A stretch of 32,000 bases of DNA from an uncultured Clostridia bacterium (lineage in GTDB: Bacteria; Bacillota; Clostridia; TANB77; CAG-508), in assembly GCA_944393125.1 (NCBI GenBank), contig CALXZB010000008.1:7528-39527 (forward strand), in the 5' to 3' direction. The notes below the pieces were generated by a model. It was not told the origin of the DNA, did not search any database, and worked only from the letters and a program-made list of their open reading frames with translations. The position numbers were made by a program, and so were the translations under genes. Shown here one piece after another: positions 14,834-32,000 of this stretch; the first letter of the stretch is position 1; every line of letters starts with the position of its first letter.

Positions 14834-14862
14834 TTGTCAAAAAAATAAATATATGTTATGAT
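14834..14862 (+). promoter_or_regulatory. Extended -10 promoter for the VanW/giant-adhesin operon
   Basis: -35 ttgtca at 14834-14839, a 17-nt spacer, and TGt-tatgat at 14854-14862. The ATG at 14889 is preceded by the SD aaggag. Confidence 0.6.
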
Positions 14863-14888
14863 AAAATAAGAGATAAAAGGAGAGAAAT

Positions 14889-29800: not shown

Positions 29801-32000
29801 ATCTAAAGAAATTAAAAATTTTGTTGAAGAATCTAATATTAGAGTAACAGTTAAAAGAGCTGTAGATATATCTGAACAATTATATCCTAATGGATATGGA
29901 GAGTTTATAGTATATGTAGAAAATTTATCTGATTCAAAAATAGAAAATCTTGAATTACAAATATTATCAGAAGGTTTTAAAACAGAAACAGTAACAAAGT
30001 TGAGTGAAGATGCAAATACAAATAATAAAATAGAAATAAGTGAGATTGAAGCTAAAGAAATAATTACTTATGCAGTATATGGAAAAATTGATTCAAATAT
30101 AAATGAAATGAAAATATGGGCAATTGTAAAAGATTCAGCAAAAGAAATATATAGATCAAATTTAGTAAAAGAAATATTGCCAAAAGTAGATGCTTTAGTA
30201 AGTATTACAAGTCCTCAAAATGGAAAAGTAATACAAGAAGGAGATACTGTAGAATACAATATAACTGTAAAAAATACAGGTGATATTGAAAGTATTGTAC
30301 AAGTTAGTGATATAATTTCAGAATATTTAAAAGTAGAATCAATATATGTTAATAAAGAGTTAATAGAATCATCTAACACAAACAATATAAATTATCCTAT
30401 AGTATTGAAACCACAAGAACAAGCAATAATAGATATAAAAGCTAAAGTAGGATATATTCCAGAATTATATCATGGAAAAATAATAACAAATAATGTAACT
30501 ATAAAAGTAGCAGATGTTATTGAAAGAAAATCTGAAACAATTACACATATAATAAAATCAAGTGAAATGCTAGATGATGATTTAAACAATATAATCAGTG
30601 GATTTGTATGGTTTGATACAAATTTAAATGGAAGTAAAGATAATGAAGAAGAAACTCTATCAGGTATTAGTATTAAATTATTTAATATAACAACTCAACA
30701 ATATGTTACAGATGAATACGGAAATCCAATTGAAGTTTTAACTGGAGAAAATGGAGAATATGTATTTACAAATATTGCAGAGGGCTCATATATAATGATA
30801 TTTAAGTATAATGATAAAGAGTATAAATTTGAAATTAATAATTTATCTGAAAATATGCTTGATATAAATGTGGGATTAAATGAAAATCTTGAAGTAGAGA
30901 TTCCAAATGAACCTAATAATCCAGAAAATCCTGAAGATTCTGAGAACCCAAGTGATTCAGAAGAACCTGGAACATCAGAAGAACCAGATGAAGAAAATTT
31001 ACAAACAATTAATGGTGTAGCATGGTTAGATGATAATAGAAATGGTCAAAAGGAAGATACAGAAACATTATTATCAGGAATAAAAGCTAAATTATATGAC
31101 ATAGCAACTAAAAAGATTATAGCTGAAGCAACAACAAATGAAAATGGTAAATATGAATTTAACAATGTAGAAAATGGCAAATATATAATTATATTTGAAT
31201 ATGATACAGAAGAATATGAACCTACAATATATATGGCAGAAGGGATAGATACTACAGAAAATTCAAAAGCAATTTTAAATAATATAAATATTGAAGGAAA
31301 AGAAATTTTTGCAGCAGTAACAGATATTATAGAAGTGCAAGAAAACAATATATCAAATATGAATATAGGTTTGAAAGAGAATTTAATATTTGACTTAGAA
31401 CTCAATAAATATATTAGTAAAATAATAGTACAAACTAGCGAAAAAACAAAACAATATGATTATGAAAATGATACATTTGCAAAAGTAGAAATTCATAGAA
31501 AACAGATACAAGGAGCAAATGTTGTACTAGAATATACAATAAAAGTTAAAAATAATGGAGAAATTGCAGGATATGCAAAAAATATAGTAGATTATTTACC
31601 AAGTGGATTAACATTTAGCTCAGAATTAAATAAAGATTGGTATATATCTGGAAATTACTTATATACAAAGAACTTAGAAAATACTAAAATACAACCAGGA
31701 GAAGAAAAAGAAGTCAAATTAATTTTAACAAAAACAATGACAAGCGAGAATGTAGGACTAGTTAATAATAGAGCTGAAATATATCAAGATTACAATCAAT
31801 ATGGAGAAGCGGATGTAGATTCAATACCTAATAATCAGTCAATAAATGAAGATGATTTTGGCTCAGTAGATGTAATTATACAAATTGCTACAGGAGGAAG
31901 CAATACAGCATATGTAATACTACTAATAATAAACATGATATTAATAGGATTTGCAATAGAACTAATGATTAAAAAACGTATAATAAAAATACCAAGTAAG
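26856..32000 (+). CDS. Second giant DUF11/SdrD-B surface protein, paralog of 16580-21979; its 3' end lies just beyond the window
   Basis: It is absent from the ORF track because no stop falls in the window. The ATG at 26856 is preceded by GGAGG at 26842-26846. My translation is stop-free for 1715 codons and collinear with the first paralog: MEKKMLKKLVALIAVITILSTDFF..., QISWNKNAYDE, GEVIKYTVTVSNSG, GFVWFDTNLNGSKD, GVAWLDDNRNGQKED, ...IPNNQSINEDDFGSVDVIIQIATGGS plus a TM helix. Confidence 0.9.
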   Translation, partial: MEKKMLKKLVALIAVITILSTDFFMLGTSLLTYATQVTNEIEGYPNIHFSTYFKDGENEAKEITQSIKEETIKIYAKIGINSDVDYLENVQIKLVNNNFNILSSNKGTLDGNTVKLDYIAAGSSTEIELNIEPIFEDKIASDMILKPQIEMSANYKNAEAPEGEEITATSELNIKYQPDESTEAELTADIITNKVLTINGKNQRVIQTLIKSRLTNNDYPVKQTILNVNIPNLGETEPEVRILTVGKSATNGLTEISNKVIENGQLQITINNEIDENNQISWNKNAYDELIITYIYPETADANKVEITANSEIKLHSSGNTYTAKYTKGIENQELDNTILERTEAITTELYKGQLYANLDTQYDTKTSIIATIVDTEKEISVQEKSDVFETDTSEVKADTKYLTTKINLENMLYILGQEGKIEIKNGQTVININKDSSVDQNGNVIINYENSESEITITTSKPVNAGVLEIYHTKAIIGNSYTREDIRSFNKLKITGEDQTSIELKETVTEAQLTIDRTSLSATESNEVMLGIKLLTDSVKYDLYKNPTITIKFPNAVENVEFIDEPNKIYADEFSIISKNYDSSNHTLKINMSGEQTKYPESSLTQSYIQLKLKITLSQYSMSQTDKITMTYTNENATQYVNGTEYGIVEKSIEISAPNELVKIFNINSSENTSLTEKVLQQVKSEDAGKEFDFNVTLINNKDTDISNIKILGKLPSTENTITGENKNTLNSILKKITTQNATIYYTENVNANANIDDSTNGWTTNINSNAKLYLIKIDKLIKGEKFTAQITIKMPDAITENAISYSQYEVIYDTDTENEVRESSRKIGLMSSLVAGINVETTAQVGNDILENDERVKEGEVIKYTVTVSNSGTEKLENVKVKLDIPEGTVLVRPIEKYIFDEGTDGETVIENGGFVYAEGKYYEEITDNEELAKLTNITIQELPQNGTYSTEYEVRINKGTANKEISNKIDITYNESSIESKEIKNFVEESNIRVTVKRAVDISEQLYPNGYGEFIVYVENLSDSKIENLELQILSEGFKTETVTKLSEDANTNNKIEISEIEAKEIITYAVYGKIDSNINEMKIWAIVKDSAKEIYRSNLVKEILPKVDALVSITSPQNGKVIQEGDTVEYNITVKNTGDIESIVQVSDIISEYLKVESIYVNKELIESSNTNNINYPIVLKPQEQAIIDIKAKVGYIPELYHGKIITNNVTIKVADVIERKSETITHIIKSSEMLDDDLNNIISGFVWFDTNLNGSKDNEEETLSGISIKLFNITTQQYVTDEYGNPIEVLTGENGEYVFTNIAEGSYIMIFKYNDKEYKFEINNLSENMLDINVGLNENLEVEIPNEPNNPENPEDSENPSDSEEPGTSEEPDEENLQTINGVAWLDDNRNGQKEDTETLLSGIKAKLYDIATKKIIAEATTNENGKYEFNNVENGKYIIIFEYDTEEYEPTIYMAEGIDTTENSKAILNNINIEGKEIFAAVTDIIEVQENNISNMNIGLKENLIFDLELNKYISKIIVQTSEKTKQYDYENDTFAKVEIHRKQIQGANVVLEYTIKVKNNGEIAGYAKNIVDYLPSGLTFSSELNKDWYISGNYLYTKNLENTKIQPGEEKEVKLILTKTMTSENVGLVNNRAEIYQDYNQYGEADVDSIPNNQSINEDDFGSVDVIIQIATGGSNTAYVILLIINMILIGFAIELMIKKRIIKIPSK

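Follow-up and report, generated by a model that had tools for sequence, protein, structure and literature searches.

A probable surface-adhesin cassette pairing giant stalk proteins with divergent thioester-type adhesins in uncultured gut Clostridia

Organization of the locus

We analyzed a 32,000-nt stretch of DNA from an uncultured, low-GC gut Clostridia bacterium (contig CALXZB010000008.1), here called the window and read on the + strand. It carries four co-directional open reading frames (ORFs) on that strand, which encode a VanW-family protein (gene 1), a giant stalk protein (giant 1, gene 2), a large putative thioester adhesin (gene 3), and a second giant stalk protein (giant 2, gene 4). 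A preliminary description, made from the letters alone, had placed these ORFs in this order and at these positions, with gaps of 23 and 6 nt, a promoter ahead of gene 1, a terminator downstream of the adhesin gene, and another promoter for gene 4; all of these features were found. Comparison with related loci showed that the conserved unit is a giant gene followed by an adhesin gene, a pair that is often repeated in tandem.

Gene 1 (14889-16556, + strand) encodes 555 amino acids (aa) and is separated by 23 nt from giant 1 (16580-21979, + strand, 1799 aa), which is followed after 6 nt by the adhesin gene (21986-26665, + strand, 1559 aa). Giant 2 starts at 26856 on the same strand and is still open at the window end, running beyond 32000 with at least 1715 codons. 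A Pfam scan returned PG_binding_4, VanW, and G5 in gene 1, SdrD_B and DUF11 in the giants, and three Cna_B domains plus SdrD_B in the adhesin, in agreement with the domain calls of the preliminary description. The ATG of giant 1 has a GGAGG 10 nt upstream, and that of giant 2 has a GGAGG at 26842-26846. The adhesin ATG is preceded by an AGGAGG that overlaps the last codons of giant 1, and the position of this site within the end of the giant 1 gene suggests that giant 1 and the adhesin are translationally coupled.

The sequence scan found no terminator-like site on the + strand between 14889 and 26665. The adhesin gene is followed by a terminator-like hairpin with a T-run (26679-26727, + strand; arms 26679-26694 and 26708-26723), which would end the first transcription unit. 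This hairpin has a 16-bp stem with 94% complementary arms and a folding energy of -19.5 kcal/mol (z = -4.7), and 0 of 200 shuffles were as good. The short gaps, the lack of an internal terminator, and the strong hairpin agree with the operon layout proposed for gene 1 to gene 3. A promoter-like site, P1 (14834-14862, + strand; TTGTCA-17-TGtTATGAT, with a TG extension), has the ATG of gene 1 26 nt downstream, and a second one, P2 (26768-26796, + strand; TTGTTA-17-TGgTATAGT), was read from the sequence ahead of giant 2. It should be noted that matches to the promoter consensus were not enriched in the window (139, compared with 143 expected from shuffled sequence). Since such matches are as common in shuffles, P1 is plausible by its position only. 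A look for an invertible promoter or phase-variation switch near P1 and P2 revealed only weak AT-rich inverted repeats. An exact DNA search with the 3' end of the window against metagenome contigs gave no match, and an exact-sequence look-up of the adhesin returned no record.

Conservation of the giant-adhesin pair

Sixty loci from a scan of one genome per species and five metagenome loci were compared, and counts are given over 66 loci. The genome scan used an alignment of 8 closer sequences as query; an alignment of 24 sequences contained no block that was conserved enough. ORFs of each locus were called and then labelled by BLAST against the window proteins. All 60 genome loci come from metagenome-assembled genomes of uncultured gut Clostridia, sampled from human (including the Hadza and BRZ sample sets), goat, rabbit, and chicken, and one of them lies in a complete chromosome of 1.55 Mb.

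Giant and adhesin had been proposed to belong together, and their linkage is kept outside the window: the order of a giant followed by a large adhesin was observed in 57 of the 66 loci. The remaining nine comprise cut contigs, frameshifted adhesin genes, and, in one case, an intervening small ORF call. Giant and adhesin genes were separated by no more than 29 nt in 56 of the 58 pairs, and the pair was found in at least two unrelated chromosomal contexts. The proteins themselves diverge fast, with 30-60% identity between species.

A second giant often follows the adhesin. In 33 related loci the spacer between the two measures 142-407 nt, which leaves room enough for a terminator and a promoter. 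Furthermore, a second adhesin follows the second giant in four loci (L005, L023, L039, and L054). Because second giants, and then second adhesins, recur in tandem, we regard the pair as the unit of the locus. The window probably holds this pair one and a half times, and the earlier suspicion that the locus continues past 32000 is likely to be right, given that relatives often carry a second adhesin at that place.

The giant stalk proteins

Giant 1 begins with a signal peptide (aa 1-35), followed by about eight Ig-like beta-sandwiches (aa ~40-850) and by CLIPPER/DUF11-type repeats from aa ~860. CLIPPER is the new name of DUF11, which has been described as an isopeptide-stabilized stalk domain of fibrillar adhesins (bioRxiv 10.1101/2025.04.25.650565). 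The C-terminal half further contains an SdrD_B domain (aa 1280-1371), a Pro/Glu/Asp-rich linker (aa ~1405-1460), and a second SdrD_B domain, and the protein ends with a terminal CLIPPER domain (aa 1634-1741), the motif QIATG (aa 1756-1760; 21845-21859, + strand) directly before the C-terminal transmembrane (TM) helix, and a basic tail. Giant 2 has the same architecture, with two SdrD_B and three DUF11 matches. In both giants the Pfam matches (two SdrD_B plus DUF11 repeats) are confined to the C-terminal half. Scores were 36.3 and 45.7 bits for the CLIPPER model (PF01345; cutoff 24.6) and 53.5 and 56.8 bits for TIGR01451 (cutoff 24). The frame of giant 2 ends at 32000 inside the C-terminal helix/basic tail region, with the QIATG motif, the TM helix, and most of the tail present; since it reaches this far, giant 2 is nearly complete, with few residues missing.

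Giants 1 and 2 are 48% identical over their full length, in agreement with the claim that the second is a paralog of the first. The identity is uneven along the pair. The last ~200 aa (21370-21979 and 31400-32000), which comprise the terminal CLIPPER domain and the sorting signal, show 82-92% protein and 83-90% DNA identity, compared with 48% protein and ~65% DNA identity in the remainder. Identity at third codon positions is also raised there. This pattern suggests that the wall-proximal end of the giants is under strong constraint or subject to gene conversion.

The N-terminal ~900 aa had been reported to match no recognized domain. This holds for Pfam, which has no model for the region, but an AlphaFold2 (AF2) model built from 24 homologs (mean pLDDT 87.4) shows the N-terminal 850 aa as an all-beta array of about eight Ig-like sandwich domains. 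Foldseek matches of this region in the PDB were the Ig-like domains of PrgB, integrin alpha legs, and alpha-2-macroglobulin MG arrays, all with low TM-scores because the chain is a flexible string. A specific head domain at the N-terminus was considered and rejected, as the fold search gave generic multi-Ig-like arrays only. With an Ig-like array, and not a new type of domain, at the N-terminus, the giants are modelled as stalk from end to end. The N-terminal region is also rare: 28 relatives were found among 5.8 billion protein clusters, all of them unnamed.

The probable thioester adhesin

The adhesin consists of a signal peptide, a region resembling a thioester domain (TED; aa ~35-240, 22088-22705, + strand), three Cna_B domains (aa ~246-520), one SdrD_B domain (aa 570-627), and a C-terminal part of ~900 aa without a Pfam match, after which come the motif TPPTG (aa 1522-1526; 26549-26563, + strand), a spacer, a TM helix, and the tail KKKILTK. 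The Cna_B region matches the B-repeats of the Cna collagen adhesin (1d2p) at E = 1e-72.

TEDs are recognized by three motifs, [YFL]C-Phi-zeta with the bond-forming Cys, TQXX-Phi-W on a helix, and Phi-Q-zeta-Phi-Phi on a strand (PMC6194298). In the window protein, YCLQ with Cys66 (22181-22183) agrees with the first motif, and YQNLL with Gln229 (22670-22672), the predicted bond partner, agrees with the third. The second is represented by AQLALY with Gln164 (22475-22477), which has Ala instead of Thr and Tyr instead of Trp relative to the published pattern, and which we counted as a match. Cys66 is invariant in an alignment of 30 orthologous N-termini, and the helix motifs of orthologs are more canonical (VQNAIW, AQKALW, TQGAIW). 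With strict patterns, all three motifs occurred in order in 31 of the 66 adhesins, and variants were present in most others.

The AF2 model of aa 30-250 (pLDDT 82, pTM 0.84) is consistent with these assignments. Cys66 lies in model strand 35-37 (protein aa 64-66), Gln164 in model helix 133-151, and Gln229 about two residues ahead of the C-terminal strand (model 202-207). In a fold search against 350,542 PDB chains, the five best matches were all the TED of Clostridium perfringens CpTIE (5a0g/5a0d). Pfam TED (PF08341) gave sub-threshold matches in 4 of the 30 orthologous N-termini (best E 1.6e-4; 13-17 bits against a cutoff of 22), with the profile alignment beginning at the Cys motif, and it was the sole family matched by more than one of the 30. 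A profile of the 30-sequence TED alignment retrieved nothing from PDB sequences, even at E = 10. An exhaustive search with the TED region found 16 relatives among 1.84 billion representative proteins, and word-indexed protein searches, with the single sequence or with the 30-sequence profile, returned only 1-2 fragments. Thus the label of thioester adhesin given in the preliminary description stands on the three motifs, the weak CpTIE fold matches, and the sub-threshold TED scores of orthologs, although neither the Pfam nor the NCBIfam model of the domain matches the window protein itself. We conclude that the N-terminus of gene 3 is probably a very divergent TED, with a predicted thioester between Cys66 and Gln229.

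The TED also varies in size among relatives. In the subclade whose cassette lies in the mreBCD context described below (L025, 14956-15855, and ~25 similar loci), the domain has an extra beta-rich insertion of ~100 aa, which separates the TQXX-Phi-W helix from the Phi-Q-zeta-Phi-Phi strand. Class II TEDs are defined by a beta-sandwich insert at this place. The TED of the window subclade has no such insertion and is Class I-like. Downstream of the SdrD_B domain, the ~900 aa of aa ~640-1500 (23900-26500) match no Pfam family or PDB sequence; they hold a Cys-rich patch, HTCTNCEGTGH, with a faint DnaJ zinc-finger-like match. When this C-terminal part was compared with the giants, only the sorting-signal region aligned.

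Small stand-alone TED proteins appeared in several loci (L001, L002-L005, and L045) and were considered as a separate partner class, which we rejected, as these are adhesin genes broken by frameshifts. The small TED ORFs are interpreted as interrupted adhesins because the stalk ORFs downstream of them have no signal peptide and begin inside the last strand of the TED. Each break leaves a short ORF that carries the signal peptide and the Cys motif, and the stalk is encoded by a second ORF starting at that strand. Broken genes were located at 11071-16618 in L001, 14378-20501 in L002, 14294-18704 in L005, and 15114-20814 in L045, as well as at 15291 in L040 and 15288 in L054. An identical break occurs in three independent assemblies of one species (L002-L004). 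The breaks may reflect pseudogenization, phase variation, or recurrent assembly error.

The VanW-family gene and its linkage to the cassette

The protein encoded by gene 1 has an N-terminal cytoplasmic tail, a TM helix (aa ~47-70), and PG_binding_4 (aa 123-235), VanW (aa 341-470), and G5 (aa 483-553) domains, for which the three Pfam E-values are 1.8e-48, 7.8e-19, and 1.7e-16. The VanW match (PF04294) scored 163.7 bits against a cutoff of 27 and covers the full profile (1-130). C399, located in GGGICQ, is the only Cys of the protein, and C399, H422, and D434 are invariant in 20 orthologs.

The preliminary description had called this a VanW/G5 protein of unknown function, which is outdated. VanW was described in 2024 as the catalytic domain of a second L,D-transpeptidase (LDT) family, in which Clostridioides difficile Ldt4 has the layout TM-PG_binding_4-VanW-G5, a Cys-His-Asp triad is present, and 3 of 7 VanW proteins tested from outside C. 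difficile were active (PMC11348318). By their conservation, the residues C399, H422, and D434 are candidates for the published triad, the Cys of which is C286 in Ldt4 and C298 in Ldt5. Because Ldt4 has the same domain layout, we assign gene 1, from its sequence, to the VanW L,D-transpeptidases as an Ldt4-like member. By analogy, its predicted activity is the formation of 3-3 cross-links in peptidoglycan. It should be noted that some VanW proteins have no cross-linking activity and no assigned role, and that LDTs of the YkuD type join proteins to peptidoglycan in other bacteria (PMC12729407).

A look for co-occurrence of VanW/G5 genes with such giants had been suggested. A VanW gene stands ahead of the cassette in 20 of the 66 loci, which form one syntenic subclade. 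The gap between the VanW gene and the giant is 1-34 nt in 19 of them, and in the exception, L051, another ORF lies between the two. Where the upstream flank suffices, the VanW-linked loci are syntenic with the window through the SDR, CBM53, DnaD-like, and DnaI-like genes. In 32 other loci the cassette lies behind M23-mecA-radC-mreBCD-PBP2-minC, and no VanW gene was found in these or in 14 loci of other contexts within the flanks compared (up to 10 kb). Given its restriction to one subclade and its absence from the 32 mreBCD-context loci, the VanW gene is not regarded as integral to the cassette. Its linkage reads as one inherited arrangement, which is not independent evidence of function.

Sorting signals

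Sorting signals were conserved over ~130 proteins. In the adhesins the family consensus is TP[PNS]TG, present in ~40 of 65 and followed by a short spacer, a helix, and KKK. The TPPTG of the window adhesin shows the tripartite layout of an LPXTG-like sorting signal and belongs to the (S/P)PXTG type, signals of which are cleaved by C. difficile SrtB (PMC4155245). In the giants the consensus is [SG][IV]xTG[GE], directly before the helix and basic tail. The giants show the tripartite layout and keep the x[IV]xTG core, but the motif has no proline. It is kept in nearly all of the 69 giants with an intact 3' end, at overall identities of only ~30-60%. The giants had been described as membrane-anchored, which is too simple in view of this conserved x[IV]xTG directly before the helix. 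A crude pattern test for the pilin motif [WYF]PK[NDHEQ] found none in the four window proteins, and Pfam found no SLH or CWB2 modules in them. Neighboring genes of the loci, judged by eye, included CapA-like, ABC-F, SpoIIE, and P-type ATPase genes.

Interpretation of the cassette

We consider it reasonably probable that coupled gene pairs, each encoding an Ig/CLIPPER/SdrD_B giant and a thioester-tipped TIE adhesin, form a surface-adhesin cassette at this locus, and that the cassette is preceded by an Ldt4-like gene that shares the operon without being obligatory. Gene order, domain content, and the conservation of pairing and motifs, on which this proposal is built, are direct observations. 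Each unit would comprise a secreted rod of ~1,700-1,800 aa and a translationally coupled TIE-type adhesin of ~1,300-1,900 aa that displays its TED at the tip of a CnaB/SdrD_B stalk. Both proteins would be exported by Sec and held at the cell surface through their C-terminal signals, TPxTG in the adhesin and [SG][IV]xTG in the giant, and would most likely be processed by a sortase whose gene lies outside the locus. The Cys66-Gln229 thioester, if formed, would bind a ligand covalently by reaction with an amine, and this ligand could be of host, mucus, dietary, or microbial origin. The giants would accompany the adhesin as a long stalk or fibre layer that is mechanically robust, and we infer that gene 1 is co-transcribed with the first pair in the VanW-linked subclade.

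Several observations weigh against this proposal. The CpTIE fold matches are weak and not significant (E 0.03-0.13, TM-scores 0.21-0.33), and the first ~240 aa of the window adhesin match neither Pfam TED, NCBIfam TQXA, nor any PDB sequence. No sortase gene was found in the window by domain scan or signature, as had been noted before, and none was found in the 66 loci (~1.3 Mb) with the TLxTC signature. The proline-less motif of the giants has no proven processing enzyme. The most similar published case is NVQTG of C. difficile CbpA. SrtB failed to cleave this motif in vitro (PMC4155245), and we therefore rejected it as a precedent for sortase cleavage of such a motif. Finally, the tight spacing of VanW gene and giant, kept in 19 species, may have a meaning beyond inherited synteny.

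That spacing is the starting point of one alternative, in which the VanW protein would be specialized for assembling or anchoring the giants. It would either couple them, with their proline-less motif, to peptidoglycan or remodel the wall locally for their insertion, and its place at the head of the operon would thereby be accounted for. Gaps of 1-34 nt in 19 species-level loci with no terminator between the genes, the non-standard motif of the giants, the attachment of proteins to peptidoglycan by YkuD-type LDTs, and the existence of VanW proteins without cross-linking activity (PMC12729407) would fit such a role. However, the same giants with the same motif occur in 32 loci of the mreBCD-PBP2-minC context and in 14 of other contexts, and no VanW gene was found in the flanks compared there (up to 10 kb). 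Synteny among the linked loci extends through the entire flank (SDR, CBM53, and replication genes), so that the linkage may be a single inherited event. In addition, gene 1 has the layout of the housekeeping cross-linker Ldt4. Known protein attachment by LDTs uses an exposed amine, as in the C-terminal Lys of Lpp, whereas the C-terminal tail of the giants is predicted to be cytoplasmic. We regard an anchoring role for VanW as quite improbable. At the other extreme, the four genes might be chance neighbors with no functional link, as the confinement of the VanW linkage to one syntenic subclade (for VanW only) and the promoter-like matches no more frequent than chance would allow. For the pair, this is refuted by its conservation in 57 of 66 loci, its gaps of at most 29 nt in 56 of 58 cases, its differing contexts, and its duplication as a unit, and we give chance adjacency very little credence.

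The remaining alternatives concern what the two protein types build together. FCT-type pilus loci give tip and shaft different sorting motifs (the Streptococcus pyogenes tip adhesin Cpa reportedly carries a VPPTG signal, and pilins QVPTG-type signals), and two distinct conserved sorting motifs likewise occur in the present cassette. It could then encode a sortase-assembled heteromeric pilus or fibre, with the TPPTG adhesin as tip and the QIATG giant polymerized, or as shaft or base, in one covalent fibre of the three proteins. The strict pairing and apparent translational coupling of giant and adhesin are compatible with this, and an N-terminal TED is typical of pilus tip adhesins (PMC6194298). 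However, the YPKN-type pilin motif occurs in none of the four proteins, giants of ~1,800 aa far exceed known shaft pilins, and every one of the proteins carries both a complete signal peptide and a membrane-anchor signal. Moreover, known pilus loci have a dedicated class C or B sortase, whereas neither a sortase gene nor a TLxTC signature lies beside any of the 66 loci. A pilus is thus an unlikely product of the cassette. The preliminary description had also raised the possibility of an S-layer-like system, in which the giants would cover the cell as a structural layer or sheath-like coat and would not act as adhesins. The giants have no recognizable ligand-binding head and are beta-sandwich stalk throughout, and their retention in ~60 species with small genomes (one complete at 1.55 Mb) suggests an important envelope role. 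Against a coat stand the lack of SLH, CWB2, or any other S-layer anchoring module, the sortase-type C-terminal signals of both protein types, and the fast divergence (30-60% identity between species) that is usual for exposed adhesins. Furthermore, fibrillar adhesins are built in the same way, from a signal peptide through tandem Ig-like/CLIPPER/SdrD_B domains to a C-terminal sorting signal (bioRxiv 10.1101/2025.04.25.650565). We hold the S-layer proposal to be highly improbable.

A variant of the cassette proposal would make giant and adhesin a two-protein covalent system, in which the thioester captures a lysine on the cognate giant of the same or a neighboring cell, giving a covalent fibre by self-assembly or a link between cells, or would have the [SG][IV]xTG motif handled by a non-standard anchoring route for which VanW was recruited in one subclade. 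Both versions would account for the strict one-to-one coupled pairing in ~60 species and the duplication of the pair as a unit. We consider this variant improbable, and treat a direct contact between the two proteins as conjecture within the surface-adhesin cassette that we favor.

Genomic surroundings

The window opens with ~3.1 kb (1-3150) that contain no long ORF, have a G+C content of 7-8%, and consist of ~4.5 tandem units of ~685 bp whose copies are 60-98% identical. Downstream of this repeat lie a 228-aa ORF (3198-3884) without a Pfam match and gyrA (4570-7023). The segment 7113-12105 on the - strand carries a DnaI/IstB-like gene (7113-8123), a DnaD/DnaB_2-like gene (8116-9171), and three genes with weak similarity to type IV secretion system components, namely TrbL/VirB6-like (9625-10494), pilin-like (10503-10820), and TraG/VirD4-like (10834-12105). 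ORFs of matching size and order, matched by these two features only, occur in VanW-linked relatives. If they are the same genes, the segment is unlikely to be a recent mobile insertion.

A cluster of tRNA-Lys(UUU), tRNA-Glu(UUC), and tRNA-Thr(UGU) genes at 13138-13419 lies upstream of the SDR gene. The SDR and CBM53 genes are convergent, and a perfect G+C-rich palindrome of 12+12 bp between them (14220-14243) could serve as a bidirectional terminator. The CBM53/CBM25 gene (14262-14795, - strand) encodes 177 aa with an apparent C-terminal hydrophobic segment. Most VanW-linked loci have a counterpart of this protein (75-90% identity), encoded in opposite orientation close to the upstream side of the VanW gene.

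Significance

Each component of the cassette is a known kind of building block. The new elements are two very divergent, rare families, the rule by which they are paired, and the conserved proline-less motif. At least 15 kb, or ~1% of such a genome (judged by the complete one of 1.55 Mb), is spent on the cassette in ~60 species. This investment in bacteria from human, goat, rabbit, and chicken suggests that the cassette is probably central to attachment in the gut. Both the divergent TED and the 850-aa Ig-like array are missed by current domain libraries, and the order of giant and then thioester adhesin could be used for annotating genomes of the clade. In addition, the annotation of the VanW gene can be updated to an Ldt4-like L,D-transpeptidase, and the proline-less motif poses a question about surface anchoring in Clostridia. 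None of these findings overturns current understanding.

Comparison with known systems

The protein of gene 1 resembles Ldt4 in its TM helix, PG_binding_4, VanW, and G5 domains and in the single conserved Cys with His and Asp candidates in the VanW domain. It differs from Ldt4 by a long acidic N-terminal cytoplasmic tail, by the lack of a C-terminal disordered region, and by heading an operon with giant surface proteins.

The giants share with CLIPPER/SdrD_B fibrillar adhesins the signal peptide, the stalk of tandem beta-sandwich domains (CLIPPER, SdrD_B), and the C-terminal sorting region. However, no adhesive head domain is detectable in them, their N-terminal half is a family-specific array of about eight Ig-like domains without a Pfam model, and their sorting motif lacks proline. 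The FCT pilus of S. pyogenes, with Cpa at its tip, offers a further parallel, as here also an xPPTG thioester adhesin is encoded beside a second surface protein with a different xxxTG signal. Sortase-assembled pili differ from the present system in their linked sortase and pilin motif, and the giant, with ~1,800 aa, has a membrane anchor of its own.

The closest counterparts of the adhesin are the TIE proteins (SfbI, Cpa, CpTIE, BaTIE), with which it shares a signal peptide, an N-terminal thioester-type domain with counterparts of all three TED motifs, a CnaB-type stalk, and a sortase-type signal, and among which the CpTIE TED is its best fold match. It departs from them in a strongly divergent TED, which goes undetected by Pfam TED, NCBIfam TQXA, and searches of PDB sequences, in a helix motif that reads AQLALY instead of TQxxΦW, and in a much longer stalk of ~1,300 aa, including the ~900 aa without a Pfam match. 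Furthermore, the adhesin gene is always paired with a giant gene, an arrangement undescribed for TIE proteins.

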